Of a stretch of DNA of 64,000 bases, positions 19,440 to 60,214 are shown piece after piece (within the stretch, counting starts at the first letter, position 1; every line of letters starts with the position of its first letter). Origin of the DNA: a virus (Duplodnaviria > Caudoviricetes); IMG/VR virus record IMGVR_UViG_3300021185_002017, one strand, 5' to 3'. Position numbers and translations under genes: made by a program. A model generated the notes under the pieces. It was not told the DNA's origin, made no database searches, and saw nothing but the letters and a program-made list of their open reading frames with translations.

Positions 19440-19452
19440 AATCAACGACTTA
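19440..19452. promoter_or_regulatory. IHF-consensus-like site AATCAACGACTTA
   Basis: Matches WATCAANNNNTTR. Same offset from the -35 box as the copy at 29242. Confidence 0.5.
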
Positions 19453-20124
19453 CAGTGTTTTGTGCTTGAATTCTTCAGCCATAGGGAAGATTTTAGTAAT
19501 AGCATCCGCTACTGCCCATGCTAATTCCATATGTTCTAATTGTGTGCCGTTGTCGCCACGCAATTCAATGTAGTGAATCCAACTACGCAATGTACCATTA
19601 ACATACAAACGGCTCACAGTATTGCCTTCTGGTAGTACTGCTCTTGCTTGTTCTTTAGCAATACCATTTTCTATAGCCCAATTGTATAGCTCGGTTGTTT
19701 GCCTAATATGCTTCATTTGTTTCATACGCCAGTCTTCGTTGATTCTGCGTTGGCTTTCGTCACTGGTATCAATTGCAATACTGTTTTGGCGATTCTTTGT
19801 GTCTTGCAGTCTTGCTTCTCGTGGAATCATTTCTAATTCCTTAACAGGGTCTGCATATCGTTGACTAAACTCTTGGAAACTAAAACTCCTATGGCGTAAT
19901 AGTTGTCGTGCAATGTCTCTGGTTGTTTCAATCTCAAGACACACTGATACCATTTCAAGTGGCGACCAGTGTTTATGTTTCATTAGATACTTAACAAGTC
20001 CTGTTGCTGTTTCTTTATTATTTTGATTATCTGGATTACTTACTCTCGCACAATAGGCTACTAAGTCTAATGCTGATTCGTTGTAATCTGGTGCTTGGCT
20101 ATAACTAATTAGTTTTGCTTTCAT
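19450..20124 (-). CDS. thyX: FAD-dependent thymidylate synthase
   Basis: KHKHWSPLE, RQLLRHRSFSFQEFSQRYA, ARAVLP, NGTLRSWIHYIELR. Confidence 0.95.
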   Translation of the reverse strand: MKAKLISYSQAPDYNESALDLVAYCARVSNPDNQNNKETATGLVKYLMKHKHWSPLEMVSVCLEIETTRDIARQLLRHRSFSFQEFSQRYADPVKELEMIPREARLQDTKNRQNSIAIDTSDESQRRINEDWRMKQMKHIRQTTELYNWAIENGIAKEQARAVLPEGNTVSRLYVNGTLRSWIHYIELRGDNGTQLEHMELAWAVADAITKIFPMAEEFKHKTL

Positions 20125-20137
20125 TTCTTTCCTTTGG

Positions 20138-20860
20138 TTAGATTCCTGCCGCCCGGCAAGTTTGTTGTATCTCTTTTACTTCTTCTCTATTTTTCTTAAA
20201 CAGTTGCATCCAAAATGGAGCATCAATAATATGCTCAATCATTTTTACTTGCTCATCGTTAAGTCGTGTTAACAACTTATCTCCTGTGTTAGACAAATAT
20301 AACAACCACGGTGATATTTTTGCACTTCGAATATCATACACTGCTCTATTAGGACTTACTTCTGTAAAGTATGTTTGCCATACTAAATTATTTTCATCTG
20401 CCCATTTAGAGAGATACATTATGTTTCTTTCTAATGCTCTCATACCACTTTCTTTTTTTACATACTCTAATAAGTATTCGTCATACAAGGCATCACTTGC
20501 CCAATCCTTTAACTTTTTGCTATTCTTAATTAACCATTCGGCAAACTTTTCTGGTTCTAAATATTCGTTGCGTACACAACTGCGACCAAACTTAACAAAG
20601 CCTTCATAGTATTGACTGTTAATAAAATCATCTATGCTTTTAGATTTACTTGCACTAGTATTCATTTCATAAAACATTTGATATACTCGATAACCAAGTC
20701 TTACATGCGTCATATCTTTGTCAGCATTTCGACGCTTCTTAACACACATATGAACACTAAGAGTTCTTTCACTCTTAAAGTTCTTCCCACACCATTTACA
20801 AGTGTTATTTTCCGAAGATGTCTTTAATTGTTTTGTCGTCGTATCCATGGGACCTTGCAT
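20138..20860 (-). CDS. Hypothetical protein with an N-terminal classical-type zinc finger
   Basis: CKWCGKNFKSERTLSVHMC. The true start may be ATG 20848. Confidence 0.7.
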   Translation of the reverse strand: MQGPMDTTTKQLKTSSENNTCKWCGKNFKSERTLSVHMCVKKRRNADKDMTHVRLGYRVYQMFYEMNTSASKSKSIDDFINSQYYEGFVKFGRSCVRNEYLEPEKFAEWLIKNSKKLKDWASDALYDEYLLEYVKKESGMRALERNIMYLSKWADENNLVWQTYFTEVSPNRAVYDIRSAKISPWLLYLSNTGDKLLTRLNDEQVKMIEHIIDAPFWMQLFKKNREEVKEIQQTCRAAGI

Positions 20861-21275
20861 ATTCTTTTAGTTCATCTTTAGAGTTTATCTGCTTTAGTAA
20901 GTCTACTTCTTCACCTTTCATATGAGGGAAGATACTGTAGATAAACTCGCTTACTTTATCTTTTTTCTTTTTAGCATTAGGTGGCTTTAGGTACGGATGG
21001 AATTGTACTTTACCAACACCACATGCACTTAGTAACAACCATTGCAATTCTGGGTGCTTACTAACTTCGCTATAATCTCTATTAACAAGTTCGTTGGTCA
21101 TATAGATGTAGTGAGCGGCATCCTTGCCTTGTACACTACTTGCGTAACGCATCATCATCCATGAACTAAATGCTTTCTTTTGTTCTGGTGTTAAGTTATT
21201 GTAGTACTTCCTATCACGCTTGTCAAGTGCGGCCATAATATCCTTTAACGGTATTGCTGGTGCCTTCTTAGCCAT
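20805..21275 (-). CDS. Clamp-loader small subunit-like protein (T4 gp62-like)
   Basis: Size and motifs (FSSWMMMRYAS, KHPELQWLLL) recall gp62-type proteins. Recognised from memory. Confidence 0.5.
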   Translation of the reverse strand: MAKKAPAIPLKDIMAALDKRDRKYYNNLTPEQKKAFSSWMMMRYASSVQGKDAAHYIYMTNELVNRDYSEVSKHPELQWLLLSACGVGKVQFHPYLKPPNAKKKKDKVSEFIYSIFPHMKGEEVDLLKQINSKDELKEYARSHGYDDKTIKDIFGK

Positions 21276-21798
21276 TAGTGTTTTCCTTGTATATTTTTAT
21301 GTAATGCTCTTCGCCTTTGGCAACATTTTCTATCCATGTAGTGTCAGCAGAATCGTCTGCACTATCGCTTACATACTTGTAGCACTTAAAGTCTACTTTT
21401 CTATCAGTACATGCTTTAGCAATTGCAAATGCTTCCATGTCAACAACATGGGCAGGATATTCTAAGTCTGGATCTGTAACAAAGTTATCGCCTGTGCTAC
21501 ATGTATATCCAACTCCTAACGAAATAGTAATAGGGTCTTTTGGTAAAAATAATTCAATTGCTTCTGGGCACTTGCCTTTGTCTCGCTCAACAAAATTTAC
21601 CATTTCGTGACATCCAGATTCTAACTTAATTCCACCTGCTGTACCAAAGTTCCAAACAGTTTGTGGGTTATGTTTTTCAATAAGTCTTGCCGCTGTTAAT
21701 GCCGCATTAATTTTACCAACGCCTGTAAAGAAAACATTATCCCACTTAGCCATAGTGGGTGCTTCACTTTCAAGTGCAATTAATATTAGATCTTTCAT
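21268..21798 (-). CDS. MTA/SAH nucleosidase-like protein (PNP_UDP_1 fold)
   Basis: TGVGKINAA, NFGTAGG, STGDNFV, VDMEAFAIAKAC, YVSDSAD. Start moved to 21798 (ATGA overlap with apt). Confidence 0.85.
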   Translation of the reverse strand: MKDLILIALESEAPTMAKWDNVFFTGVGKINAALTAARLIEKHNPQTVWNFGTAGGIKLESGCHEMVNFVERDKGKCPEAIELFLPKDPITISLGVGYTCSTGDNFVTDPDLEYPAHVVDMEAFAIAKACTDRKVDFKCYKYVSDSADDSADTTWIENVAKGEEHYIKIYKENTNG

Positions 21799-22325
21799 TC
21801 GTTTATATCCATGACGCTGAATGTTTCCACTCCGCAATAGTCCTTTAGTTTAGCAGTTCCTTCTAAGAAAGTCAAGTCTATTATGCAGGCATAATTTATA
21901 TCATACCCTCCTGCTTGTTTAATTAGTTCTACCATAGCATTAGCAGTTCCACCTGTAGCACTAACATCATCTACGATGCATATTCTATCAGTATATGCAA
22001 ACTCAACACTGTCTAGCATTTCTAAAGTTTCTTCACCATACTCTAATGTATATGAATACGACTTTACTTTGCCTGGCAATTTACCTGGCTTACGAACAAT
22101 GTGTAAAGGGATACCTAGTGCTAGTGCAACAGGAGCACCCCATATAAAGCCACGAGCATCGGGTGCAACAATCTGTGTTGCTTTGATACTTCTGCAATAT
22201 GCAACGACCTTATCTACAGTGTACTTAAATGCTTTTGGGTCTTCGAGTATGCTTGATATATCTTTGAACATGACTCCCTCTATTGGGAAGTCAGGTACAG
22301 TACGGAGTATTTTATTGAGATCCAT
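21795..22325 (-). CDS. apt: Adenine phosphoribosyltransferase
   Basis: VPDFPIEGVMFKDI, DARGFIWG, VRKPGKLPG, YTLEYG, IVDDVSATGGT. Confidence 0.95.
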   Translation of the reverse strand: MDLNKILRTVPDFPIEGVMFKDISSILEDPKAFKYTVDKVVAYCRSIKATQIVAPDARGFIWGAPVALALGIPLHIVRKPGKLPGKVKSYSYTLEYGEETLEMLDSVEFAYTDRICIVDDVSATGGTANAMVELIKQAGGYDINYACIIDLTFLEGTAKLKDYCGVETFSVMDINE

Positions 22326-23418
22326 ATAAGTCTAACTGCTCCCATGGTAAATCTTCTTTTCCAAAATGCCCATAGTTTGTGGTAGTAGTTAGATCTAAAT
22401 TGAATAAATCAAATCTATCAATTATTCCCTTTGGTGTTAAGTCAACAAGTTCTTGTAATTCTGCAACTAAGTCAGGCCTGACCTCGCCGTCAGCATAAAC
22501 ATACAAACTAGTTGGTTCAACTACACCAATAGCATAACTTAGTTGTACAGTACAGTTGTCTGCTTTGCCTGATGCTACAATGTTCTTTGCCAAATAGCGA
22601 GCCATATATGCTGCTGATCTGTCGACCTTAGTGCAGTCCTTACCTGAAAAAGCACCGCCCCCATGTGGAGCATAGCCGCCATAAGTATCAACAATAATTT
22701 TTCGTCCAGTAAGTCCTGTATCTCCATCTGGTCCTCCAATAACAAATCTACCCGTTGGGTTGATTAAAAATTCAGTTTCTGATAAATTAAACACACCGTC
22801 TAACTCATCGATAATGATTTGCTCAATTCTGTCACGAACAGTTTGTATACTTACATCATCGCTATGCTGAGTACTGCAAACAATCTTGCTAATACCTACA
22901 GGTTGATTAATGCTATCGTAATCCATTGTAACTTGACTTTTACTATCAGGTCCAATCCATTCTTCGCCGTTGCGTCTTTCTTTTGCAAGTCTGCGTAGAA
23001 TTTTATGACTATAGTAAATAGCACTTGGCATATACTCAGGTGTTTCTTTACATGCATAGCCAAACATAAGTCCTTGGTCACCTGCACCAAACTCATCAGT
23101 ACCTAATGCAATATCTGCACTTTGTCCGTGTAGTTTGTTTACTACTGTTAGGTTAGCCCAATGGAAACCTTCTTGTTCGTATCCAATATTCTTAACTACT
23201 TGTCTAACTATAGATTCTACAGTTTCATCATCGATAGGCATGTCTCTTTTGTATTCGCCAGCAACAACAACACTATTAGTTGTTACAAGTGTTTCTACTG
23301 CCGCTCTATGATTAATATTACCGTTGATTATTGCATTAGCAATACTATCTGAAATTAAGTCAGATATTTTGTCTGGGTGTCCTTCGCTAACGCTCTCGCT
23401 AGTAAATTGATAAGACAT
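22312..23418 (-). CDS. metK: S-adenosylmethionine synthetase
   Basis: FTSESVSEGHPDK, GAGDQGLMFGYA, NPTGRFVIGGP, GLTGRKIIVDTYGG, GGGAFSGKD. Start moved to 23418 (GGAG RBS). Confidence 0.97.
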   Translation of the reverse strand: MSYQFTSESVSEGHPDKISDLISDSIANAIINGNINHRAAVETLVTTNSVVVAGEYKRDMPIDDETVESIVRQVVKNIGYEQEGFHWANLTVVNKLHGQSADIALGTDEFGAGDQGLMFGYACKETPEYMPSAIYYSHKILRRLAKERRNGEEWIGPDSKSQVTMDYDSINQPVGISKIVCSTQHSDDVSIQTVRDRIEQIIIDELDGVFNLSETEFLINPTGRFVIGGPDGDTGLTGRKIIVDTYGGYAPHGGGAFSGKDCTKVDRSAAYMARYLAKNIVASGKADNCTVQLSYAIGVVEPTSLYVYADGEVRPDLVAELQELVDLTPKGIIDRFDLFNLDLTTTTNYGHFGKEDLPWEQLDLYGSQ

Positions 23419-26239: not shown

Positions 26240-26268
26240 ATTATAGTCTACTTGTATGTTAATGTCAA
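26240..26268 (-). promoter_or_regulatory. Perfect sigma70 promoter TTGACA-N17-TATAAT
   Basis: Overlaps the 3' end of the TonB-receptor gene. The uvsW ATG follows 5 nt after the -10 box. Confidence 0.85.
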
Positions 26269-27822
26269 GAAGAACTTGCGTCCTCCTGCGTCATATCCTG
26301 GTAATACTTCAACAACATCATCTAGTACATCTTGTACTGTAAATGCTAATCCAAGTTTATCAGATAGTTGTTTTCTCAATACAAAGTCTACTGACTTAAT
26401 ATCATCCAACGATGCACCATCATACGGTCCAGGGTCTCTATCAAACTGTGCTGTATAACTTAATTCAGCAGTTGTTTCACCGAAACTAGCAAAGTATGAA
26501 ATACGACCTTTGTACGCAGGTACTCTAGGTTGATCAGTATCTGTATATGCTACAAAAACATTTAAACTACCATAAGGTACAGCATACATGTCTTGGAATC
26601 TGACACCTTTGGTTTCATATTCGCCTGTGTTAACATATTGCTGAGAACTGCCATCGTAGTCAATATTTTCATCAAAGTCATATGCAAAGTATGAAAGACC
26701 TAAGTAACCAATTTCAAATCCAGTTCCTTCTTCAGGCTTCAAACCTAAGTTTGGTTTTACCCATGAGTCGCCGTATTGTTGATACAATGTAGGATTACGA
26801 TAACTTGTACTAATGTTAGCAAAGAAACCTTTACTATTATCAAAGCCAAGTCTGTATACTCTTGCATCTTCACTTACTCGTGTGCCAAACTGCAACTGGT
26901 TGTTATATGTAATAACAGCATAGCCACTAACATCATCCTGTGACTCACCAATGTAGTTTTCTTTATCGTATGTAATACCTGACACAATAGTTGTTACAGG
27001 ATTAAGATTAAAAGTATCTCTGGCATCAAAGTAATAACGATCTGCATCATTTGAATAAGTACTTACACCTTCGGTGAAGTATTCACTTTCAGTTTTGTTA
27101 TAACCAATTGTTACATGTTCGTTCCTTACACTAATGTCAGTCCTTGTACCTTCTTGTACACATTCATTTGACTGTGAAAAAGATGATGTATAACAATTAT
27201 CATAATCGTATTCATAATCTACATGTGACATTGCTAAAGTAAAACCATAAATGTCTCTGACTGATTTAATAGATGTATTTTTATAGTCATCTCTTTCAGT
27301 ATTATCGTTTCGCACACTGTCATTAGATACATCAAATGATGATACACTTATGGAGTCAAGTATTGCTACATTTAGCAATTGATGATGCTCCCCAAGTCTA
27401 AGAACTGCTTGGTCTTCGATTTTGTCATTTATAAACACTGTTCCGCCTAGGCTACCAGAGCCATAAAGAACACTGTTAGGTCCTGAAACAATGTTAACTG
27501 TCTCGAGTCCACTCACAACATCATGTGCAAAGTCATACCAGCCTGAGCCGGAATCATTTGCTGGTACACCGTTCCTGTACACGGTTGTGTGTGTAGTTTG
27601 AGTACCTCGTTCATTAAAGCCAGCAAATCCACCATATCCACCTGCTACAAATGAAGTAGCCGGCATAACAATTTCAATAATTGACATGTCGTCTGTTACA
27701 TCTGTGGTGTCTACTTGACTTACTGTTCCAACGACTACAATCTCTTCAATGAGATTAGAGTCTTCTGCTAAAACTGCATTACTCGTTGCGAGTAATAAAA
27801 GCAGTGTTACTAAGTTTTTCAT
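26248..27822 (-). CDS. TonB-dependent outer-membrane receptor (compact, BtuB-like size)
   Basis: Signal peptide, TonB-box-like EEIVVVG, plug motifs (VYRNGVP, VSGPNSVLYGSGSLGGTV) and C-terminal GRKFFLTLTYK strand. Confidence 0.88.
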   Translation of the reverse strand: MKNLVTLLLLLATSNAVLAEDSNLIEEIVVVGTVSQVDTTDVTDDMSIIEIVMPATSFVAGGYGGFAGFNERGTQTTHTTVYRNGVPANDSGSGWYDFAHDVVSGLETVNIVSGPNSVLYGSGSLGGTVFINDKIEDQAVLRLGEHHQLLNVAILDSISVSSFDVSNDSVRNDNTERDDYKNTSIKSVRDIYGFTLAMSHVDYEYDYDNCYTSSFSQSNECVQEGTRTDISVRNEHVTIGYNKTESEYFTEGVSTYSNDADRYYFDARDTFNLNPVTTIVSGITYDKENYIGESQDDVSGYAVITYNNQLQFGTRVSEDARVYRLGFDNSKGFFANISTSYRNPTLYQQYGDSWVKPNLGLKPEEGTGFEIGYLGLSYFAYDFDENIDYDGSSQQYVNTGEYETKGVRFQDMYAVPYGSLNVFVAYTDTDQPRVPAYKGRISYFASFGETTAELSYTAQFDRDPGPYDGASLDDIKSVDFVLRKQLSDKLGLAFTVQDVLDDVVEVLPGYDAGGRKFFLTLTYK

Positions 27823-45314: not shown

Positions 45315-46451
45315 CTAAAAGGCTTTTAATATGATAGTTGTGTCATTAAAACGCCCGTTCATCTTAGTATCCGTTGTCGTAAGGTCCTTAAACGCCTTAC
45401 TAAACTTAGTCTTTGCATTTCCAGTCCAGTTTTTAATTTGTTCTGCTGGTTTACGCAATGTTTTTTGTACACTCTTAGTAGGATGAAAATCTTGTAGTGT
45501 TGTTCCTTTAACAGTCATGCCGCCTTTTAGATCATCTACTACATACATGCCTACTTTACGAGTTTTTGTATTATACACCCAAATCTCTGTTGCGTCAATG
45601 ACTTCAGTTGGATTAATACTTGCAATACCTAATCCACTGTCATTAATCTGGAACTTCAATTTGCTTACAACTTTTTCTTTACTTACTGCTTTAGGCTTAC
45701 GAGTCTTTCTGTTTGCTTTGCCTGTTAAGATAAATGCATCACAAGCCGCATTAATTTTTTCATAAATGGCCAAGAAGTCTTTACGCATTTTCTTGTCCAT
45801 GAAGTTGTATGCTTCTTTAATGTCTTCGTCTTTCCATTCTACAACTTCTAATGCTTCTCGATATGCTGAATCAAAATCGTCTTTAATAATTTTTGCATGA
45901 TTAGGTTTTACAACGCCACCACCGTACACTTTCATTTCTGTAAACGGGTCAAACTTTTTAAGATCAAACTTACCAGTTACTAAATCATCAATGTGACCTT
46001 CCCAATTGCCTAATAGGCCTTGCACCTGCTCGAACATTCTTTGTTGTATACTAACTTTGGGTTTTGCATCAGCCGCCTTTGCTTCTTTCTCTTCTATGAT
46101 GTTTTCGGCTTTGTTTTCTAATGCAGGAATTTTATTTAATAGATGTTCCTTAACATCTGGGTTCATGTAGCCATTTGTTTTGTGCCAAATGTAAGTGTGT
46201 TTAGCAAACGAACTAAACCACACATCAGGAACCTTTCTTAACTTCTTGATTAGGTCTTTGTCTAAGCCGCTATCTTTTTCTAACCAAGTAAAGATTGTAG
46301 ATGCACATTTCTTGTCTGCTACTTCGTAATGTACAAAGTATTCAAACTTGCGATACAATTTAGTCTTCTCTTCGTCAGTTTTAAGGGTATGTATTTCCTG
46401 CCACTTAGGTTCTGGCATTAAATATATGTCTTTACTTTTGCGTCTGGCCAT
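45315..46451 (-). CDS. Hypothetical Lys-rich protein
   Basis: 378-aa ORF under the upstream sigma70 promoter. Confidence 0.75.
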   Translation of the reverse strand: MARRKSKDIYLMPEPKWQEIHTLKTDEEKTKLYRKFEYFVHYEVADKKCASTIFTWLEKDSGLDKDLIKKLRKVPDVWFSSFAKHTYIWHKTNGYMNPDVKEHLLNKIPALENKAENIIEEKEAKAADAKPKVSIQQRMFEQVQGLLGNWEGHIDDLVTGKFDLKKFDPFTEMKVYGGGVVKPNHAKIIKDDFDSAYREALEVVEWKDEDIKEAYNFMDKKMRKDFLAIYEKINAACDAFILTGKANRKTRKPKAVSKEKVVSKLKFQINDSGLGIASINPTEVIDATEIWVYNTKTRKVGMYVVDDLKGGMTVKGTTLQDFHPTKSVQKTLRKPAEQIKNWTGNAKTKFSKAFKDLTTTDTKMNGRFNDTTIILKAF

Positions 46452-46684
46452 TAGTCACTCTCAATTTCATAAGGATTGTTATATACTTCTTTAACCAATG
46501 CTGGCCATTGATTAAATCCGATTATGCTATTTTTATCTTTCAACGCATTTTTATCCTTGAGAAATTGAACAATTTGTATGATCCCGCTGAACTTACCGTT
46601 TAGTTGTCCAGCTCTAAACGAAAAGTAACTGTTAAGAATTACAAATGCAAGTGCTAGTAGTATCTCATTAAATTCCATACCCAT
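46451..46684 (-). CDS. Small protein with N-terminal transmembrane helix
   Basis: EILLALAFVILNSYFSF, with GGAGA RBS. Confidence 0.65.
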   Translation of the reverse strand: MGMEFNEILLALAFVILNSYFSFRAGQLNGKFSGIIQIVQFLKDKNALKDKNSIIGFNQWPALVKEVYNNPYEIESD

Positions 46685-46737: not shown

Positions 46738-48606
46738 CTACTTATGATTGAGTGGAGAAATTAGGTTCGTTTGCCAGTTCCTACGGCGTCCAAAGAAGAG
46801 CCAATCGATGTGTTCGTCGGCTGTTTTTGCAAAATTATTGTAGCGATCACTGACTGTTACCGCTGAAGTTTGTAAAAGATCTGATGTTAATTCGACTGTT
46901 ACAGGTTCTGTAATGTACTGATCAAATTGTTTTGGCATTAGCAATGCTAATTTTTTGTAGTCGTTGATTACTTCATATGGCACATTAGCATATTGATCTG
47001 TAAAGTCTACTACTAGCTCTACTAAACGAGGCACATAATTATTTAACTGTGCAATAGGCATGAAACTGTTGATACCTTTCCATCCACCCTTGATAGTGTA
47101 GCCACCAATAGTATGCAAATTGTATCCTGTTTGTTTCCAAAGCGAGTATCCTTCTTTGTGTTGTTCGAACCATTTACTAATCTCTGGATCAGTTTGTACA
47201 TACTCCATTAGTGATGCATAGAATTCGCTGTATTGTATGTTTGCTTTACGATACATATAGTCTGCGATAAGTGTAGTTACACCGTAACTATGCATACCCA
47301 CAACAAACCAAGAGTACTTACTTAGATCGTACATTTCTTCTTTTGTTAATGTGCTAGAACTACTAATAATGTTAATTGACTCTGCTGTTCCGTTGTTAAT
47401 TTCTTGTTCTACATCACTAGTAGTTTCATAAAAATAATCGTATGCTCTAAATGTTTCCATTCCAAAAGTTTCTTTGTCTTCTACATTCATAGGGGCATTT
47501 TCAATCAACTGTAAATAAAAAATATCCATGTTAATAACATTGTTTTCAAACATTGTATCGATAACTTTTAACCAACTGCTGTATGTTTCGCCTGGCATAC
47601 CCATGATAAGTTCTGTCATAATTGGCAAATTATATTCTTTTGCTTTTTGTGTTACTACTGCAACACTGTTAATTTTCATGTTGTCTCGTTTAACATTCTT
47701 TAACACTTCGGGTGTTGTTGACTGAAAACTTGCAGCTGGTGCATTTTGAATATTAGCGTCTAATAACTTTCTACCAATTTGGTAAACTGCATCTATATTG
47801 TTTTTTGCATAACTAGCACTAAGAACTTCTGGGATACCTGTTCGTTGTTTTGCTTCTATCATGTAGTCTGCTATTTCTAAATCTCGTTTGAATGCACCAA
47901 AGTTACTTGCAGTAAAATTAAAATAAGGCATCTTGTTATCAGCACACCAGTTAATCTCATCATGTATTCGTTGCATGTGAAACTTATGCATTTTACTTGC
48001 TGTTGCACTACCCCAGTCACAGTAAGTACACTTGAATGGGCAACCTCTGTCTGTTTCTATCGTAGGCACCCATTCTATATCTGGGTTTGCTTCTATTAAA
48101 CTATCAAACACTCCTGTTAAATATGGACTTGGTAATTTGTCTAGTTCTTTTATTCTTTCAAACTGTAATGTTTTTGGCAAGTCTTCTCCAGCAATAATGT
48201 TTCGCATCACTGCAAGAGCGGCTTGTTCGCCTTCGTTAATTGCTATAGAATCTATATATGGGTGTTTGTCAAAGAAGTTTTTATCTCGCCATGGTATTTC
48301 AGGTCCACCTGCTACAATGATAATATCTGGGTTAACTCTTTTGAGTGTTCTTAACAGTTTGTAACAGTAATTAATATTCCACATATACATACTGCAAAAT
48401 ATTACATCACAATCAACAAGTTGTTCAACTGCATCGCCTATTAAAGGTCTTTGAAAAATCCAACTGTGTATTTTAAAGTTATCTTGTATATCTTTATATT
48501 GATTTACATAACTCCACAGGCATCCTAAAGTGTACGGCAAGTACCAACTGTTCAGATGTTTTGGTCCTGTCTGAAAATTAGGCTGTATTAGTCCTACGGT
48601 TTTCAT
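46738..48606 (-). CDS. Cobalamin (B12)-binding class B radical SAM enzyme
   Basis: N-terminal B12-binding Rossmann domain (LPYTLGCL, SMYMWN, IVAGGPE, NEGE) and ETDRGCPFKCTYCDWG (CxxxCxxC), ELIMGMPGET. Confidence 0.88.
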   Translation of the reverse strand: MKTVGLIQPNFQTGPKHLNSWYLPYTLGCLWSYVNQYKDIQDNFKIHSWIFQRPLIGDAVEQLVDCDVIFCSMYMWNINYCYKLLRTLKRVNPDIIIVAGGPEIPWRDKNFFDKHPYIDSIAINEGEQAALAVMRNIIAGEDLPKTLQFERIKELDKLPSPYLTGVFDSLIEANPDIEWVPTIETDRGCPFKCTYCDWGSATASKMHKFHMQRIHDEINWCADNKMPYFNFTASNFGAFKRDLEIADYMIEAKQRTGIPEVLSASYAKNNIDAVYQIGRKLLDANIQNAPAASFQSTTPEVLKNVKRDNMKINSVAVVTQKAKEYNLPIMTELIMGMPGETYSSWLKVIDTMFENNVINMDIFYLQLIENAPMNVEDKETFGMETFRAYDYFYETTSDVEQEINNGTAESINIISSSSTLTKEEMYDLSKYSWFVVGMHSYGVTTLIADYMYRKANIQYSEFYASLMEYVQTDPEISKWFEQHKEGYSLWKQTGYNLHTIGGYTIKGGWKGINSFMPIAQLNNYVPRLVELVVDFTDQYANVPYEVINDYKKLALLMPKQFDQYITEPVTVELTSDLLQTSAVTVSDRYNNFAKTADEHIDWLFFGRRRNWQTNLISPLNHK

Positions 48607-48607
48607 T

Positions 48608-49525
48608 TTACTTAGGATCTTGGTGTGTTACCCACCACTCGATTGTTCTTTCTAAGCCTTCGTGTAAATCTACTTTTGGTTCCCATCCTAGCATTTTTGT
48701 AATTTTACGATTAGTACTGTTAAGTAAAAATATTTCACCAGGTCTATGTGGCTTGTAATTCCATTCTATTTCGCCATTCCATCCTAACTTATGTGCAATC
48801 ATGTTTGCATAGTCCTTAATTTTAATTGCATTGTCTGGTCCTATGCAAAATATTTCTCCTGCACATTTGTCTGGGTTCTCAATAACACATTTCCATGCCT
48901 GAAGTAAATCATCAATGTAAATAAAGTTTCTGTAAGGCTCTGCATAACCTAATTGAATCTTTTCATGGTTATTAATCATTTGATTAATAATTTGTTCTGT
49001 TACAAAGAAGTCGTTATCTTTTCTACCATACGCATTAGTTTGCCTAATAGCAGTAAACGGTAAGCCATAACTTCTATGTGCATATTCTAAATACTTTTCA
49101 CAAGCATACTTGGCAACTGCATACGGAGCATTCGGATTTGGTTGTGTATCTTCGTCAAATGCTATCACATAGTTTTCTTGTCCAGCTCTGATTAAATCAC
49201 TAATAGGTTGCCAGCCATACACTTCCATTGTACTAGCAAACACAAAATTCTTTAAGTTTTTAAGTTCTCTACATGCTTCAATTAAATTTACTGTACCAAC
49301 ATAATTAATATCACTAAATTCTATTTGTTCTGTAAAACTTTTCTCTACTTCTGTTCTAGCGGCTAAGTGTACTATTATTTCTGGGTCAAATCTGCGTAAT
49401 TCTTCTTTTACATTTTCGTGTTCTCTGAGATCGCAACCTAACGCACAGATTTCGTGCTTATCTTGTAGCAATGGCACCATATGTGAGCCAATAAACCCAT
49501 CATGCCCTGTAATAAAAATTCTCAA
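48608..49525 (-). CDS. NAD-dependent NDP-sugar epimerase/dehydratase
   Basis: ITGHDGFIG, HLAA, ASTMEVYG, YAVAK (YxxxK), NAYG. TTG start with GAGGA RBS. Confidence 0.92.
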   Translation of the reverse strand: MRIFITGHDGFIGSHMVPLLQDKHEICALGCDLREHENVKEELRRFDPEIIVHLAARTEVEKSFTEQIEFSDINYVGTVNLIEACRELKNLKNFVFASTMEVYGWQPISDLIRAGQENYVIAFDEDTQPNPNAPYAVAKYACEKYLEYAHRSYGLPFTAIRQTNAYGRKDNDFFVTEQIINQMINNHEKIQLGYAEPYRNFIYIDDLLQAWKCVIENPDKCAGEIFCIGPDNAIKIKDYANMIAHKLGWNGEIEWNYKPHRPGEIFLLNSTNRKITKMLGWEPKVDLHEGLERTIEWWVTHQDPK

Positions 49526-49558: not shown

Positions 49559-49577
49559 AGATAGCGTTTTAGATCTT

Positions 49578-49585
49578 GATAAATA
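49578..49585 (+). promoter_or_regulatory. Late promoter GATAAATA (N5 to ATG)
   Basis: GATAAATA-GTGTT-ATG at 49591. Confidence 0.8.
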
Positions 49586-49590
49586 GTGTT

Positions 49591-50652
49591 ATGCCAAGAT
49601 TGAGTTTATGGAATCCAACAAAGACAAACGATTTCGATTTTATTGATCGAGTCGTTGGTGAACACCTCCACGCGGGTGGGACCGGTGTGCATTTGCACAA
49701 ATATTTAGGTACACAGGCTATTGCAGACACAAAAGACCCTACAAGGCCTGGAACTGACGGCAGTAACACTGAAGTTTTTATACAAGACTTGCTATTCTTA
49801 GAAAATAGAGATAGACGATACGATAAAAACATATACGAGTTGCGTGGACAATACAACATAGGCGACAATGACGGATTTGATTTAACACAATTCGGAATGT
49901 TTTTGGCAAACGATACCCTGTTTATGAATTTCCATATAGAAAGTATGGTTGAAACAGTAGGTAGAAAATTAATGGCTGGTGATGTAATCGAATTACCTCA
50001 CTTACGAGACGACTTATTATTAGGTAGTGACGAAGCCATAAACAGATTTTATGTAGTAACGGATGCTAGTAGACCAGCAGAAGGTTTTGATCCTCGTTGG
50101 TGGCCTCATTTATGGAGAGTTAAACTAGGTCCTATTACAGACTCACAAGAATACAGAGATATTCTTGGTACCGGCGAGGAAGAAGGCGATCTTAGAAATC
50201 TTATTAGCACTTATGCTGACGAAATTGCAATTAGTGAAGCAATCACTGAAGCAGCTGAAAAAGATGTACCGTATAATCCTCAGCAGAACGATACAGCACA
50301 TTTATATGTAGATGAAAATGCAAAAGGCAAACCTAGAATTGACTTTGCTTCTGCAGATGGTACTCCACCAAACGGAGCATCTATAGTTGGTAGTGGGGAA
50401 TCATTCCCAACTAGTGGTACAACAGATGGTGATTACTTTTTGCGTACAGACTTTGTGCCTAATAGATTATTCGAAAAGCAAGGTTCTCGTTGGAAATTTA
50501 TTAAATCAAATAGCAGTGGGTCGTGGACGGCTGCAAATAGAATACTTACAGGCTTTATTAACAATGAAAATCTTGTTAGCAACGCAGACGGGACTATTAC
50601 AGGAGAAAAAGTCAATCTAAGCCAGGTAGTTAAGCCTAAGACGGATAACTAA
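49591..50652 (+). CDS. Neck/head-closure protein (gp14-like)
   Basis: MPRLSLW start, DLLFLENRDRRYD, FDLTQFGMF, GDVIELPHL, WWPHLWRVK. Adjacent to gp15. Confidence 0.7.
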   Translation: MPRLSLWNPTKTNDFDFIDRVVGEHLHAGGTGVHLHKYLGTQAIADTKDPTRPGTDGSNTEVFIQDLLFLENRDRRYDKNIYELRGQYNIGDNDGFDLTQFGMFLANDTLFMNFHIESMVETVGRKLMAGDVIELPHLRDDLLLGSDEAINRFYVVTDASRPAEGFDPRWWPHLWRVKLGPITDSQEYRDILGTGEEEGDLRNLISTYADEIAISEAITEAAEKDVPYNPQQNDTAHLYVDENAKGKPRIDFASADGTPPNGASIVGSGESFPTSGTTDGDYFLRTDFVPNRLFEKQGSRWKFIKSNSSGSWTAANRILTGFINNENLVSNADGTITGEKVNLSQVVKPKTDN

Positions 50653-54013: not shown

Positions 54014-56071
54014 TTATTTAGAAGTAGCAATAAAAACACCGTCCCAATCTTTAGGCAGTGTTTGAGTCTTTTGAAATTCGCAACGCTCAATCCACATATC
54101 ATAATAACCTTTCATCTTACCTTCAAAGGCATCGTGTAGTTGCTCACATAATATAATTGCTTTATCAAAGTTTTGTTTACGATATTGCATGTGCATATCT
54201 TCGTGCATTTGTCTTGCTTTTGCATACTTGCCTACTTTAATATCAAGTACTGTGTATATTTCGATGCCCACAGTCTTTCCTTTTACTGCTAGGTCATCTA
54301 CTTTAAGATAAAAGAATTTATTATGTGTGTGCTTGTAAGTGTCTCCTCCCACTAACAACAAGCAACCATATTCCTTACACTTACTTTCTATTCTCGCGGC
54401 AGTACTAACTGCGTCTCCGAGTATGTCATATGAATGTCTGGCAGTGGAGCCCATCTCCCCAATATAACCGAGCCCAGTATTAATACCAGCACCCATACCA
54501 ACTGGCGGTCTACCTTCTTTAACAATTTTATCATTGAATTCCTCTACTGCTCTAAGCATTAGTAATCCTGTGTTCACAGCACTTGCAGGATGATCTGGGT
54601 CGTCCATTGGTGCATTGTGTATGTGCATACTTGCATCGCCAATATACTTAATAACCATTCCGTCTGCATCAAGTATAGGCTGTGTAATGGCATCCATGTA
54701 ACCATTCATTATTTTTGTTAGTCCTTGAACATCATCACCAAAACTTTCTCCTAGTGGGGTGAAGCCACGCAAATCTGAGAAGCATATACTAACTTCTTTT
54801 TTCATACCTTGTTTAATTAAGTCTGGATTTTCTTGCAACATTCTAACAACTGTAGGAGAGGCATATCCAGCAAATTGTTTCTGTATTTCTGCTCGTAGTT
54901 TAAACTGTATCCAAAAGTTATTAAAACTTGCCTGTGTAAAGATTAAGAATGCACTTATTGCAGGAAAAGTAGCATCAAATAAAACTAAGTTTGCTGTATA
55001 AGAATGTACACTATAATATACAATTCCGCCTATAATAGTGACTGTAGTTACTAATCCTGCCCATATAGGCAACTTATATATTGCTAAAGCAATTAATATC
55101 ATGCTCAACAACGCACACAGAAGCTCTGTAAGCAACGATAATTCAGATCTGGTAATGTTACTCCCGTCTATAAAATTCTGTAGCATAGACGCTTGTATTT
55201 GCTGTGGTAGTACGTTGCCTCTAGGTGTGGGTACCGGATTGGCAACGCCTTCTGCACTCACACCCACAATAACGAACTTTCCGCCTAAGTTAGGCAGTTC
55301 ACTCGCATCTACATATTCGTGTTCTTCAAAAGTGTTATTAAATCGTATATATGCTGTACCATTTGGTGTTGTTACTATTGGTTCAAAGGGTGGTACTGCA
55401 AACTCTTGTATTCCTATTTCACTAGTCTTTAAAATGTAACTAGGTTTTTGTGTATAAGTCCTTAACATCTCAATAGCAAAACTAGGATATATCTTTCCCT
55501 CTACTCCAATCGCTAGTGGGTAAGTTCTTGTTTGGTTATCAGGCTGAGGAGCACTTGCTACTACTCCAATACCTGCGGCTACACTTTCTAGTGGTTCAAT
55601 ATTCGTTACGAGATTCGGCCATGTCAGCAAGTAGTTGGTAGCGGGTACTGGGCCTATCGTTCCTGTACCAATGTGCGGACCTGTACTCTTTACTCCTCTG
55701 GAAGATGGGGTTTGGGATAAAACTATGCCGTTGTCTTTCATCCAACTGGAAAGTACTGGATCTCCTCCAAACCGGTCCGTCTCCGGAAACATCACTGTTA
55801 GCCCTATCATTCCTGCATTCTTGTTTCTCAGGTCTGATATTAGTTGTGCAAAATTCTGTCTTGGCCATGGCCATTGTCCCCACTGTTGTAGGCTTTTTTC
55901 GCCAATGTTTATTACTACAACTTCGTTACTTTGTTTAACTTCATCTAATTGTTGGTAGTAATCGAATGTCTGTGAACGCAGACTTTGAACTGGTGTTGGG
56001 TCAGCAACTTTGAGAGCTGTAAGTAATACTATAGATATTGCTACGGCCCAGCCGCTGTATAACCATTTCAT
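54014..56071 (-). CDS. CHASE2-domain membrane class III adenylate cyclase
   Basis: N-terminal TM, CHASE2 (GQWPWPRQNFAQLI, VVASAPQPDNQTRTYPL), three TM helices, then cyclase FSDLRGFT, KYIGD, GINTG, YDILGDAVSTAARIE. Confidence 0.93.
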   Translation of the reverse strand: MKWLYSGWAVAISIVLLTALKVADPTPVQSLRSQTFDYYQQLDEVKQSNEVVVINIGEKSLQQWGQWPWPRQNFAQLISDLRNKNAGMIGLTVMFPETDRFGGDPVLSSWMKDNGIVLSQTPSSRGVKSTGPHIGTGTIGPVPATNYLLTWPNLVTNIEPLESVAAGIGVVASAPQPDNQTRTYPLAIGVEGKIYPSFAIEMLRTYTQKPSYILKTSEIGIQEFAVPPFEPIVTTPNGTAYIRFNNTFEEHEYVDASELPNLGGKFVIVGVSAEGVANPVPTPRGNVLPQQIQASMLQNFIDGSNITRSELSLLTELLCALLSMILIALAIYKLPIWAGLVTTVTIIGGIVYYSVHSYTANLVLFDATFPAISAFLIFTQASFNNFWIQFKLRAEIQKQFAGYASPTVVRMLQENPDLIKQGMKKEVSICFSDLRGFTPLGESFGDDVQGLTKIMNGYMDAITQPILDADGMVIKYIGDASMHIHNAPMDDPDHPASAVNTGLLMLRAVEEFNDKIVKEGRPPVGMGAGINTGLGYIGEMGSTARHSYDILGDAVSTAARIESKCKEYGCLLLVGGDTYKHTHNKFFYLKVDDLAVKGKTVGIEIYTVLDIKVGKYAKARQMHEDMHMQYRKQNFDKAIILCEQLHDAFEGKMKGYYDMWIERCEFQKTQTLPKDWDGVFIATSK

Positions 56072-56076
56072 ATCAA

Positions 56077-56084
56077 TATTTATC
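56077..56084 (-). promoter_or_regulatory. Late promoter GATAAATA (N5 to ATG)
   Basis: GATAAATA-TTGAT-ATG. Confidence 0.8.
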
Positions 56085-56589
56085 GTATTCTATTGCAGTT
56101 ATTTCTGGCTTCGGATAGCACATCATAGTTATTTGCAATCACATGAGCCATTATAAAATTTGGTGCGTATAAGTCGTTGTTTTGAATATCACGCCATTGT
56201 GAATATAATGCAGGACCTAGTAATATTAACTTTAGAAATATTATTTCTTCTGTTGAAGGTCGTTTGCCTAATAAGGGATTTAATTCTTCTACACAGTCAA
56301 ATTTTAATGCCTCTTTAGTTGTGTATACATCTAATAATTGTAATGTAAAAAATATTGTCCATTGCACATTATCAGCTCGTTCGAATGTAAAGTCTAAATC
56401 AAGTTTAGGGTGGGTGAGATGCTTAGGCATATCTTTGTACTGTTCTAATAGTACGCCGTTTATTGTTTCTTCACTGTAGCAACAATAATTACCTGCGTAT
56501 ATAAGTTGTTTTTGAGTTAATGTTAAACTGAGGGCATTTGTACTAAAAAATAAAAGCGACAACGATGCTATTATCATTGCCGCTTTCAC
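56080..56589 (-). CDS. Hypothetical exported/membrane protein
   Basis: GTG start, signal peptide, LQLLDVYTT...ELNPLLG hydrophobic motif. Confidence 0.65.
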   Translation of the reverse strand: MKAAMIIASLSLLFFSTNALSLTLTQKQLIYAGNYCCYSEETINGVLLEQYKDMPKHLTHPKLDLDFTFERADNVQWTIFFTLQLLDVYTTKEALKFDCVEELNPLLGKRPSTEEIIFLKLILLGPALYSQWRDIQNNDLYAPNFIMAHVIANNYDVLSEARNNCNRIR

Positions 56590-56669
56590 CTTACTCGCAC
56601 TCCTGAGGATTTTCAGAACAATATTTTTTGATTTGTTGAATTAACATTTTTATATCGCTCTCATTATCT

Positions 56670-56713
56670 GCCTTCTTCTCCTTTCGTGGAGACAAAAGGC
56701 TTAGTCCTTTTTT
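56670..56713 (-). other. Candidate -1 programmed ribosomal frameshift signal
   Basis: In-frame A_AAA_AAG (56713-56707), 6-nt spacer, then stem-loop GCCTTTT-G-TCTCC-ACGAAA-GGAGA-AGAAGGC (56700-56670). Confidence 0.6.
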
Positions 56714-56976
56714 GGTTCTTGCAATTCGTCAGTTTGTTTATCGACTTCCTGTTCTACAGTTTCTATAACACCACTAGCTGCTTCCGCTGCTGTAGTTGCT
56801 ATGCTAGAAGCATCTTTTAAAACCGCTTGACTTACAGTCGAAACGGCATTAACAGATCCATCTACTACGCCGGTTGTGAACTCTTTACCACCTTCAATAA
56901 CTGCACCAACTGATGCACATGACGGTAAAAATACCACCAAACTGAGACCTGCTAGAATAGTGAATAGTCTATTCAT
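56701..56976 (-). CDS. Small lipoprotein (amphipathic Ala/Val/Gly repeats)
   Basis: Lipobox-like FLPSC. Start moved to 56976 (AGGAG RBS). Confidence 0.75.
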   Translation of the reverse strand: MNRLFTILAGLSLVVFLPSCASVGAVIEGGKEFTTGVVDGSVNAVSTVSQAVLKDASSIATTAAEAASGVIETVEQEVDKQTDELQEPKKD

Positions 56977-57024
56977 AAGGTTCTCCTTAGTTTGTTGTAA
57001 CATGCGGCATGCATATTACAATAG

Positions 57025-57032
57025 TATTTACC
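57025..57032 (-). promoter_or_regulatory. Late promoter variant GGTAAATA
   Basis: Upstream of the lipoprotein gene. Confidence 0.5.
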
Positions 57033-57052
57033 TTATATAAAGGCAAGTTATC

Positions 57053-57169
57053 TTAGATTAGAAGTAATCCTATTGCAAAGCCTATGTTTAAGCCTATAGA
57101 ACAAACTAATATAAAGTCCTTATTAAACGAATATGGTACTAGTTCTACTATTTCTTTGTTATGTGCCAT
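57053..57169 (-). CDS. 38-aa single-transmembrane protein (not in the ORF track)
   Basis: MAHNKEIVELVPYSFNKDFILVCSIGLNIGFAIGLLLI, with AGGA RBS at the curlin stop. Confidence 0.6.
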   Translation of the reverse strand: MAHNKEIVELVPYSFNKDFILVCSIGLNIGFAIGLLLI

Positions 57170-57176
57170 CCTATTC

Positions 57177-58265
57177 CTAGTTGCTACCATTCACTGTTAT
57201 TGAACACCCTGCTGTGTTAAAACATATACCTGTGATGCTGTAAGTGCCTGCTGATGATGTCATGTTTTGTATTAAGTCAAGTGTGTAAGCACCAGTACCG
57301 TATGTTAAATCTATGGTTGCTGTTGCGTTATTGCTGCCTCGTTGGTTAACATCAACACTATGTCCATCACCATCTAACACAATGTCTGCCCATTTAACAC
57401 CACCGTTGCCTCGTTGATATAAGTCTACGGTGTTATTATCACCGCCTATTTCTATAAAGCCATCGTGTCCTGCTTTGCCCATTTGTGTATGCTCTACACT
57501 ATTACTATCGCCAGTAATAATATTTGCTAAATGATGTCCTGCTCCGCCGCCTGATCTGTTTGTATCTGTTTGATAACTTGCTAACGAATTATTATCTCCA
57601 GTCACAGTCCAGTATGCTTCGTGGTCTCCTACTTCGTCTGAATCTGTTGTGCCGTCGGCATGTTTGCCTTGCCATACTCTGAGATCGTTGTTATCTGATC
57701 CGGAACCCATAATAGCTCTAATATAATTGTCATCCTGCCCGTTACCCTGGAAAGCATCAATGCTATTATTGCTACCAGAAAATACTTCAAGGTAAGCATA
57801 ATGGTCATCGCCTTCTTGCCAAAGTTGTATTTCATTATCAGTGTTAGAATTACTAGTACCTGATTCTAACCAAGCATAATTGTTATCACCCATTACATCT
57901 ACTTTTAAATCAGTATAATTACCATGGGCATCTAATAATACTGCGTTGTAATCACCTTCTGTGTAGGCATCTAATGTTTGATTACTACCACTACTCCATA
58001 TACCTAAAACATTATTGTGGCCTCTTTGTTGTAGGCTTACTGTTTTTGTGGCGCCATTAAGAATGGCAGCTGAATTTGCGTTGTCTAATTTTCTAATTGT
58101 ATTGCCGGTCCCTGCTTGTAATATATCCATTGTTAGGTTATCACCTGTCTGATCTATATTTATTTCGTTGTCTTGGCCGTAGCATGCCTGTGCAGTAAAG
58201 AACATTAATATAACTAGTATACCTAAATGTGTTCCTGTTATTTTGTTTAATATATTTTTAATCAT
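57177..58265 (-). CDS. Curlin-repeat protein (CsgA/CsgB-like, long)
   Basis: Signal peptide and many QxGxxN repeats (IDQTGDN, ILQAGTGN, LQQRGHNN, LWQEGDDH, LYQRGNG, VNQRGSNN). Start moved to 58265. Confidence 0.85.
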   Translation of the reverse strand: MIKNILNKITGTHLGILVILMFFTAQACYGQDNEINIDQTGDNLTMDILQAGTGNTIRKLDNANSAAILNGATKTVSLQQRGHNNVLGIWSSGSNQTLDAYTEGDYNAVLLDAHGNYTDLKVDVMGDNNYAWLESGTSNSNTDNEIQLWQEGDDHYAYLEVFSGSNNSIDAFQGNGQDDNYIRAIMGSGSDNNDLRVWQGKHADGTTDSDEVGDHEAYWTVTGDNNSLASYQTDTNRSGGGAGHHLANIITGDSNSVEHTQMGKAGHDGFIEIGGDNNTVDLYQRGNGGVKWADIVLDGDGHSVDVNQRGSNNATATIDLTYGTGAYTLDLIQNMTSSAGTYSITGICFNTAGCSITVNGSN

Positions 58266-59433
58266 TTTGTGTAATTTTAATGTATATGCCTTCACACTGG
58301 TTCAAGCAAAACACTGTTTCTCCCGTATCTGAATCGTTAATAATAATTTGAGCCATAGAGCCTTGTGCTAATTTTATTCCTATTTTATTATTAACTTCTC
58401 TTAGAAAAAATACCTTACCATCGTATTCTGGAAAATTATTAAACTGACTAGTAGGGTCTCGACCCCATTGTTGGCTTATTAATTTATCTCCAGAGCCACT
58501 TGACAGTTTTTCTTCTGCAAGTGCATCTATATCGTCACTTAAAACTTCAAGTAAATCGTTTAAAAACTCTACATTTAAATAATCTATATCTAACTCAGAA
58601 AATTCAAATTGTCGATCTGTATCTTCTTCTAATACTGCTTGGTCTAAAAAATCTTGGTCTAATCCATCAAAATCTAATAACCCAGCATCTCCTTTTAATT
58701 GTTCCTGTTGTTCTTCTTGTGCTACAGTAATCTCTTTTGGTTCTGATACAATGAACATGTTGTCTATCATATCTAAATTTAAGTTTACTAACTTAACTGG
58801 TGGAGTTGGTATAGTTTCAAATGTGCTTACCATTACTGCTTGGTATGCTTCATCTAATATTTGTGTACCACCATCATTAGTAACTGTTATACTTCCACTC
58901 GGAGCACAGCCTTCTTCTAATTTAACTTTGTCTGTACAATCTTCGTCTGGCAATAATATTACCAAACTTCTACCCAGTTCATCTACTGTGGTAGTAAAAT
59001 CTGTTCCCCTAATACCAATACTGGCTGTGGGGGTTTGTATTTGTATATTTTCTCTTGCTACAAGTCCTAATCCACCTGTGGCAAATCTTGCTGTTCCTGA
59101 CACAAAATTTAAAGCCATTTTACTTTTATTAGGGTCTGGATCAAATACATACTCGTTAATTTCCATGTATGTATTTTCTGTTAGACTAACTTGCGTATCG
59201 TCTACAAATTTAATCTTTAATCTACCGTTAGCAGTTTCTACTTCGTCCATGCTAACAATATTTGTTTCTAGTTCTGCTTGTAATGTTTCGCCTGTAGTTC
59301 TTGAAATCTTACCTACTGAACCAGATTGTTCAAATATGCCGCCAATATTCTCAGCGGCACTTATTGAACTTGTTGCAACGCAACTAAGTAGCAAAAGCCA
59401 CTTAATCTTGCTGAACAACGCTAACCGATGCAT
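58258..59433 (-). CDS. FecR-domain exported protein with acidic C-terminal region
   Basis: Signal peptide, DEVETANGRLKIKFVDDTQVSL, QTPTASIGIRGTDF, SGSITVTN. Start moved to 59433. Confidence 0.85.
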   Translation of the reverse strand: MHRLALFSKIKWLLLLSCVATSSISAAENIGGIFEQSGSVGKISRTTGETLQAELETNIVSMDEVETANGRLKIKFVDDTQVSLTENTYMEINEYVFDPDPNKSKMALNFVSGTARFATGGLGLVARENIQIQTPTASIGIRGTDFTTTVDELGRSLVILLPDEDCTDKVKLEEGCAPSGSITVTNDGGTQILDEAYQAVMVSTFETIPTPPVKLVNLNLDMIDNMFIVSEPKEITVAQEEQQEQLKGDAGLLDFDGLDQDFLDQAVLEEDTDRQFEFSELDIDYLNVEFLNDLLEVLSDDIDALAEEKLSSGSGDKLISQQWGRDPTSQFNNFPEYDGKVFFLREVNNKIGIKLAQGSMAQIIINDSDTGETVFCLNQCEGIYIKITQND

Positions 59434-60196: not shown

Positions 60197-60214
60197 TATA
60201 TTCTCCATATATGA

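Follow-up and report, generated by a model that had tools for sequence, protein, structure and literature searches.

Canonical 5'-methylthioadenosine (MTA)/S-adenosylhomocysteine (SAH) nucleosidases (MTANs) cleave MTA, SAH, and 5'-deoxyadenosine (5'-dAdo). Aminopropyl transfer, such as that by spermidine synthase, inevitably yields MTA, and radical S-adenosylmethionine (SAM) enzymes inevitably yield 5'-dAdo; the two compounds act as product inhibitors of aminopropyltransferases and radical SAM enzymes. In viruses, metK, mtnN, luxS, ahcY, and dcm have been described as auxiliary metabolic genes of methionine and SAM metabolism, and viral metK and MTAN-type genes have been catalogued, sometimes together on one genome (Kieft et al., bioRxiv 10.1101/2021.01.05.425418); viral metK and mtnN are also covered elsewhere (PMC13037316). 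Adenine phosphoribosyltransferase (Apt) and adenine are not mentioned in the catalogue of Kieft et al. Apt does appear in the SurE-MTAP-Apt route that has been proposed for Prochlorococcus (PMC11698098; MTAP, MTA phosphorylase), in which an enzyme of the purine nucleoside phosphorylase (PNP) family acts on MTA or deoxyadenosine to free adenine for salvage by Apt. Here we describe a phage locus with a comparable pair of enzymes, found in a 64,000-nucleotide stretch of DNA from an uncultured member of the Caudoviricetes (IMG/VR record IMGVR_UViG_3300021185_002017; the whole stretch is called the window below), in which metK, apt, and a gene for a short MTAN-fold nucleosidase follow each other on the minus strand at 21268-23418. 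Unlike the Prochlorococcus route, for which no operon was reported, this locus is viral rather than cellular and encodes a member of a hydrolase family rather than a phosphorylase.

The three genes are overlapping, co-directional open reading frames (ORFs) lying exactly where an earlier note on this DNA had placed them, and the identities given there proved correct. The first, metK (22312-23418), has an ATG preceded by AAGGAG and encodes a methionine adenosyltransferase (SAM synthetase) of 368 aa, which scores 441 bits on TIGR01034 (curated equivalog cut-off 309.4) and matches all three S-AdoMet_synt domains (PF00438, PF02772, and PF02773) over their full length. The second, apt (21795-22325), encodes an Apt of 176 aa, placed in that family by NF002636 (183.2 bits, cut-off 125), with a score slightly under the cut-off on TIGR01090 (175.6 bits against 185.85); in its translation, ICIVDDVSATGGTA shows the phosphoribosyl pyrophosphate (PRPP)-binding motif of type I phosphoribosyltransferases, VDDVSATGGT, with a hydrophobic run, two acidic residues, and xxTGGT. 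The third gene (21268-21798), which starts at the ATG also used by its homologues, encodes the nucleosidase, likewise of 176 aa, which belongs to the MTAN branch of the PNP superfamily and matches PF01048 (PNP_UDP_1) with 52.8 bits (cut-off 25.1).

The overlaps amount to 14 nt between metK and apt and 4 nt (ATGA) between apt and the nucleosidase gene, which in turn overlaps by 8 nt with the next gene, a minus-strand gene for a protein of 156 aa (20805-21275). Coupling therefore extends past the trio, which is part of a longer packed minus-strand run reaching from a UvsW-like helicase gene to thyX. A consensus scan for promoters and terminators gave nothing above shuffled expectation. As such, the three genes overlap as had been claimed, while the notion of a discrete three-gene operon was rejected.

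The part of the trio that is conserved in other phages is the pair of apt and the nucleosidase gene. A scan of IMG/VR with the nucleosidase yielded 34 loci, in which synteny was counted by tblastn. At 31 of the 32 informative phage loci, apt lies directly upstream of the nucleosidase gene; the sole exception is L035 (4969-6501), which has no apt and at which genes for a peptide deformylase and SufE precede the nucleosidase gene. At 21 of the 30 phage loci covering that side, metK lies directly upstream of apt. In G003, metK is found 35 kb from the pair and approximately 2.5 kb from a radical SAM gene. In the complete 156-kb phage C48C1, apt and a nucleosidase gene (55% identity to that of the window at the protein level) follow ribonucleotide reductase (RNR) genes. 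Since 9 of the 30 loci, and the whole of C48C1, have no metK, selection acts on the pair and not on the trio, and metK is a dispensable add-on. Among 50,697 phage records in GenBank, the pair was present in C48C1 only, and our literature search found no published work on this phage. No family in PHROGs v4 matched the Apt or the nucleosidase of the window, nor did literature searches find a description of a phage Apt-nucleosidase pair.

The pairing is the more telling for the variety of Apt proteins that take part in it. Across L002-L034, the apt slot holds at least 9 Apt clusters with mutual identity below 70%, and 7 representatives, from 7 of these clusters, all scored above the NF002636 cut-off. 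One nucleosidase cluster (at least 70% identity, 24 loci) is partnered with at least 7 Apt clusters that are less than 70% identical: at L010, a nucleosidase identity of 86% goes with an Apt identity of 41%, and at L015, one of 85% goes with one of 99%. These comparisons suggest that Apt has been replaced repeatedly with its place beside the nucleosidase retained, and that the pairing, not a particular apt allele, has been kept. Functional coupling of the two enzymes is therefore well evidenced by this repeated exchange at a fixed position, and it is strongly supported by their conserved adjacency in phages and bacteria. A specific protein complex of Apt and the nucleosidase is unlikely, as Apt versions of approximately 40% identity have been swapped in beside nucleosidases of more than 80% identity, which argues against a co-evolved interface.

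Several phage loci carry additional genes around the pair. At L010 (3394-3828) and L011, a 144-aa P-loop kinase-like protein (APS_kinase/AAA_18/AAA_33) is encoded directly upstream of metK, and at L013 (4953-5477), L015, L017, and L020, an ORF of 174 aa with no Pfam match lies between metK and apt. In a second phage lineage (L021:6725-9728, on G003, and L022, on G002), the pair is followed by genes for an NT5C-like 5'-nucleotidase domain protein and two 2-oxoglutarate/Fe(II) oxygenases, and speD is found approximately 14 kb from the pair. Four loci from metagenome-assembled genomes (MAGs), L046-L049, gave the best matches to the phage nucleosidase among genomes; they have apt directly upstream and encode nucleosidases 49-57% identical to that of the window. 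L046-L048 belong to Verrucomicrobiota MAGs. The only one of the four that was examined, L049, lies on a contig binned as a Porticoccaceae MAG. Its gene order, nrdA-x-nrdB-apt-nucleosidase, is that of C48C1, and DUF932 is encoded as well; the contig is probably of phage origin and ended up in the MAG through binning.

Outside phages, the short nucleosidase belongs to a family of 300 clusters (50% identity) at E <=1e-10, with members mostly of 165-200 aa. Carriers among species-representative genomes include Pelagibacter, SAR116/Puniceispirillaceae, Rhodobacteraceae, Bradyrhizobium, Afipia, SAR86, and Litorivicinaceae, as well as Polynucleobacter, Herbaspirillum, Bdellovibrio, and SAR202-type Chloroflexota. 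One short structure, that of Brucella melitensis (4pr3), has been solved and is uncharacterized, and short homologues are labeled adenosylhomocysteine nucleosidase by JGI pipelines. The phage enzyme shares its shortened architecture with the proteobacterial members (4pr3, PRK05634; Pelagibacter, SAR116, SAR86, Polynucleobacter, and Afipia), which often have apt adjacent as well, and differs from them in sequence, with 35-46% identity to cellular members, a score under the PRK05634 cut-off, and a shorter ERDKGKCPEA... loop. Among 76 bacterial loci, apt is adjacent to the nucleosidase gene in 23, on the same strand in 14 and divergently in 9, and in 3 bacterial loci (2 of Bdellovibrio and 1 of a Bacillota MAG), metK lies 1.5-3.2 kb downstream. 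The phage pair is most plausibly a pair of salvage genes captured from a host.

The neighbors of the bacterial genes vary. In Pelagibacter sp. Uisw_127, apt lies divergently upstream of the nucleosidase gene and a gene for a fused SAM decarboxylase-spermidine synthase (speD-speE) lies directly downstream, and a second Pelagibacteraceae genome has the same arrangement; L087 (3436-5677) and L052, both of Pelagibacteraceae, thus each form a compact MTA-producing and MTA-recycling locus. Other neighbors include genes for QueA and for homocysteine S-methyltransferase (2 loci each), amid many unrelated genes. On a 985-kb bacterial contig, a nucleosidase fused to Cupin_5 is encoded directly after iscRSUA-hscB (L045:5001-6080). 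The iron-sulfur contexts of L045 (isc genes) and of the phage locus L035 (SufE) could reflect a tie to radical SAM or iron-sulfur enzymes, or could be coincidence.

Five carriers (Pelagibacter, Polynucleobacter, Afipia, the gammaproteobacterium LSUCC0096, and Herbaspirillum) were checked for other enzymes that deal with SAM by-products. All 5 encode the SAH hydrolase AhcY above the cut-off. No MTAN above the TIGR01704 cut-off was found in any of the 5, the best weak match being the short nucleosidase itself in 3 of them, and MTAP was found in none. Judged by these gene complements, the short enzyme would be the only visible candidate in the 5 carriers for disposal of MTA and 5'-dAdo. As AhcY is present, and both MTAN and MTAP are absent, in all 5, MTA and 5'-dAdo are likelier substrates than SAH, which would be the least likely main substrate. 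The emphasis on SAH in the earlier note thus appears misplaced.

To what extent the nucleosidase can be called an MTAN was assessed by structure and by residues. An AlphaFold2 model built on 92 homologues (pLDDT 92.2, pTM 0.88) showed the MTAN-type alpha/beta fold: Foldseek returned an E-value of 6e-12, with TM scores of 0.80-0.82 normalized to the query, and the best structural matches in the PDB were MTANs or futalosine hydrolases without exception. With VIA-align, 174 of the 176 residues were superposed on the Helicobacter pylori MTAN 5cce (Z 20.9, root-mean-square deviation 2.6 Å), and the Escherichia coli, Vibrio, and Salmonella enzymes came within one Z unit of it; over the canonical MTANs compared (E. 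coli Mtn/Pfs, EC 3.2.2.9; 1jys, 5cce, and 4qez), the values were Z ~20 and 2.3-2.6 Å over 171-174 residues. A profile of the nucleosidase family scored 60-96 bits against MTANs of the PDB, and its best match was the short B. melitensis structure, over its full length.

The residues that matter for catalysis are retained as well. In E. coli Mtn, Glu12, Met173/Glu174, Ser196/Asp197, and Phe151 are catalytic or bind ribose and adenine. An alignment to Mtn from the MG1655 record showed that the phage protein keeps all of these (E12 as E12, M173/E174 as M121/E122, S196/D197 as S144/D145, and F151 as F106), with conservative changes at four other positions (M9 to L9, I50 to V27, S76 to T53, and R193 to K141). 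Every one of the 92 family members has E12 and E122, and nearly all have M121, D145, D104, and F106. The phage protein is also predicted to form a homodimer, as canonical MTANs do, in which a loop of the other subunit lies by the active site. The prediction scored 0.86, against 0.00 for the best control, with at least 95% contact agreement between runs, a partner pLDDT of 91, and an interface formed by residues 71-88, 104-108, and 151-159. Of 30 proteins solved as one-chain pairs, 20 reached that mark, as did 1 of 23 solved as single chains, although, MTAN dimers being solved, this result may mirror mere likeness to them. Taken together, the model and the alignment point to an enzyme that is probably a minimal-form, adenine-releasing hydrolase of 5'-substituted adenosines, of the MTAN branch and outside the curated MtnN family by score and architecture.

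The only SAM user recognized in the window is a class B (B12-binding) radical SAM enzyme, encoded on the minus strand at 46738-48606. The gene is real, as the earlier note had it, with Radical_SAM (PF04055) and B12-binding (PF02310) domains. The proposed tie between it and the trio was not borne out and has been rejected. Contig G007 is collinear with 27.9-57 kb of the window at 41-96% protein identity (mostly 70-96%) and keeps metK-apt-nucleosidase at 86-93% identity. Between its homologues of 46451-46684 and 49576-50652, only approximately 130 nt are found (L037:8295-8423), and the radical SAM gene and the adjoining gene for an NAD-dependent sugar epimerase/dehydratase (48608-49525) are absent. 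These two genes (46738-49525) are a presence/absence cassette, which is not genetically linked to the trio. No homologue of the class B enzyme was detected in 10 related records, including the complete C48C1, most of the fragments among them ending short of the syntenic site.

Other SAM consumers are scattered among related phages. Of 5 related records, 4 encode a radical SAM domain; speD is present in 2 of 5 (G002 and G003, and not C48C1, G005, or G006), and spermidine synthase was found in none of the 5. When the genes of G003, including speD, were compared with the window by tblastn, metK was the sole match. A polyamine link was therefore considered unproven for the phage of the window, speD being unmatched there and spermidine synthase absent from all 5 relatives. 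A general association of the pair with SAM consumers is possible. The reading given in the earlier note stands in part: a link to SAM is supported by metK, which is adjacent to the pair at 21 of 30 loci, and by speD-speE, which lies beside it in Pelagibacter, but metK is no part of the conserved unit and the tie to the class B enzyme is gone.

With the gene identities, the fold, the catalytic residues, and the pairing in phages and cells in hand, we consider it probable, with some reserve, that the locus joins a phage SAM synthetase to a host-derived nucleosidase-Apt pair that clears by-products of SAM use and returns their adenine to AMP. The two salvage genes carried by the phage would come from bacteria as a unit. 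The nucleosidase, a minimal enzyme of the MTAN type and probably a homodimer, would hydrolyze the N-ribosidic bond of 5'-substituted adenosines left from SAM use, most likely 5'-dAdo from radical SAM enzymes and MTA from aminopropyl transfer, with SAH a possible substrate. Apt would then convert the released adenine and PRPP into AMP. In the lineage of the window, a phage MetK would have been added directly upstream, such that a single coupled transcript would provide for making SAM, removing product inhibitors of SAM-dependent enzymes, and retaining adenine in the adenylate pool. We infer that the phage would benefit by sustaining its SAM-consuming enzymes and by saving purine in a nutrient-poor host.

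A number of observations weigh against this reading. The nucleosidase falls under every curated MTAN cut-off (41.3 bits against 73.8 on TIGR01704, 55.6 against 169 on NF004079, and 57.7 against 161 on NF005522). Its best NCBIfam model, PRK05634 'nucleosidase' (NF004168), gave 91.6 bits, again below the cut-off (129), and 87.8-101.4 bits for the nucleosidases of three phage relatives; PRK05634 is the nearest curated model and not a family containing the phage protein. At 176 aa and approximately 25% identity, the protein has some 55 residues fewer than a canonical MTAN (~230 aa) and does not have the full-length architecture, with no counterparts of E. coli Mtn residues 23-44 (a beta-hairpin), 114-121, 134-143 (a helix), and 159-166. 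Because of these scores and missing residues, the name MTA/SAH nucleosidase used in the earlier note is a putative one and does not stand for membership of a curated family. In addition, the loop by which the partner subunit lines the 5'-alkylthio pocket is not conserved in the phage subclade, where V102, F105, Y107, and P113 of E. coli are replaced by K76, E79, I81, and K87. The window subclade has the shorter, derived ERDKGKCPEA... in place of QRDMxCCxFGFExGQTPF, and the E. coli-like FGFExGQTPF is retained in more distant phage and bacterial members. With its loop altered, the 5' specificity of the subclade's enzyme may therefore differ, the loop being the least confident part of the model. 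Finally, metK is lacking at L001, L018, L021, L022, L024, L026, L028, L029, and L032, and was found nowhere in the complete C48C1 genome, and the nucleotide-metabolism genes near the pair suit general purine salvage equally well.

In that alternative, the nucleosidase would mainly cleave adenosine and deoxyadenosine supplied by nucleotidases acting on the breakdown products of host nucleic acids, Apt would rebuild AMP and so move adenine between deoxyribonucleotide and ribonucleotide pools, and metK would be a mere neighbor. The neighborhoods lend themselves to this: thyX lies two genes downstream of the nucleosidase gene in the window, RNR subunits are encoded directly upstream of the pair in C48C1 and L049, the NT5C-like protein is encoded directly downstream at L021 and L022, a third of the loci have no metK, and deoxyribonucleotide recycling has been proposed for the SurE-MTAP-Apt route (PMC11698098). 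The active site speaks differently, as the same-subunit contacts to the 5'-substituent of E. coli Mtn stay hydrophobic (L9, V27, F106, and M121), and adenosine is a poor substrate of canonical MTANs. Both the adjacency of metK at 21 of 30 loci and the Pelagibacter speD-speE arrangement also indicate products of SAM. We regard purine salvage as unlikely to be the main role, and the two roles are not exclusive. The altered loop leaves a smaller chance that the diverged enzyme prefers a phage-specific adenosine by-product or signal, given its shorter, charged KGKCPEA loop and an Apt to recycle the adenine, or that it is a dedicated scavenger of 5'-dAdo, which would allow a high flux through the radical SAM enzymes of a phage that has unusually many of them and whose marine host is poor in SAM and limited in sulfur.

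The same loop bears on support of methylation, in which the nucleosidase would chiefly remove SAH formed by phage or host methyltransferases and so spare MetK-driven methylation from product inhibition: one may speculate that the polar residues K76, E79, and K87 could fit the charged homocysteine tail. Cleavage of SAH by canonical MTANs is textbook knowledge, and metK and mtnN are both viral auxiliary genes (bioRxiv 10.1101/2021.01.05.425418). Against this, Pfam recognized no methyltransferase in the 50 window ORFs scanned, those shorter than approximately 140 aa lying mostly outside the scan, and with AhcY in all 5 bacterial carriers, the non-redundant job of the family there would be MTA and 5'-dAdo, making an SAH-centered role rather improbable. 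Least probable by far, and supported by none of the evidence, is a role in counter-defense, which the earlier note had raised for Apt. ATP-nucleosidase effectors such as Cap17 and Detocs DtcC raise adenine and deplete ATP in infected cells (bioRxiv 10.1101/2023.01.24.525353), and phages are known to rebuild depleted NAD+, such that Apt might recapture the adenine, or the nucleosidase might destroy an adenine-containing immune signal. In bacteria, however, the two genes serve ordinary housekeeping; Apt alone would be too slow to restore the ATP that an effector destroys, the nucleosidase would be unneeded for such a role, and our searches found no publication linking Apt to anti-defense. The nucleosidase itself was considered as an ATP nucleosidase of the Cap17/DtcC type and rejected, as it is a stand-alone 176-aa domain with no sensor fusion and matched the PADLOC PNP effector model PDLC00759 with only 18.7 bits over 41 residues (115-155), against 91.6 bits on PRK05634.

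The window, with a G+C content of 37%, is part of the genome of a marine jumbo phage that is uncultured and related to T4, and encodes a T4-type large terminase, a tail sheath protein, a gp15 tail-sheath stabilizer, UvsX-like and UvsW-like proteins, and ThyX. Among cultured phages, the nearest terminase is that of Pseudomonas phage PA5oct (58% identity), and CheckV estimates for related contigs imply a genome of approximately 350 kb. Downstream of the nucleosidase gene, the 156-aa protein has no Pfam match and belongs to phrog_11758 (unknown function); its gene is syntenic in most relatives, whether metK is present or not. Further downstream lies thyX (19450-20124, minus strand), which encodes a flavin-dependent thymidylate synthase (PF02511 Thy1, 147.6 bits) and whose position is syntenic among relatives.

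Two other regions of the window were noted. A TonB-dependent receptor Plug-domain protein is encoded at 26248-27822 (minus strand), where an AAA ATPase-like gene and the gene for the UvsW-like helicase flank it; its identity among relatives ranges from 40% to 97%, making it far more divergent than its neighbors. A curli-type (type VIII secretion) cluster occupies the minus strand in the region 54014-61701, with genes for CsgF (61165-61701), CsgG (60215-61165), a FecR-domain protein (58258-59445), and a curlin-repeat protein (57177-58295), adjoined by a gene for a 685-aa membrane protein with CHASE2 and class III nucleotide cyclase domains (54014-56071). Curli clusters have been described for pelagimyophages (PMC7029224), and no mention of a CHASE2-cyclase beside phage curli was found in the passages of that source consulted.

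With regard to novelty, the locus is a metabolic cassette derived from hosts, the logic of which can be predicted from the order of genes in bacteria, and it involves no new kind of mechanism; only the altered pocket loop of the window subclade might conceal something more unusual. Its meaning lies rather in what it adds to phage metabolism. Besides SAM synthesis, a group of abundant uncultured marine jumbo T4-like phages would bring into the cell the half of SAM metabolism that removes by-products and saves purine. The unit would derive from a gene pair in use among marine bacteria themselves, and with it Apt joins the auxiliary metabolic genes known from phages. This offers a testable reason why phages rich in radical SAM and glycan-modifying enzymes could escape product inhibition. 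For the bacteria, the short MTAN family appears to be the sole enzyme for disposal of MTA and 5'-dAdo in SAR11-type and other AhcY-using species.

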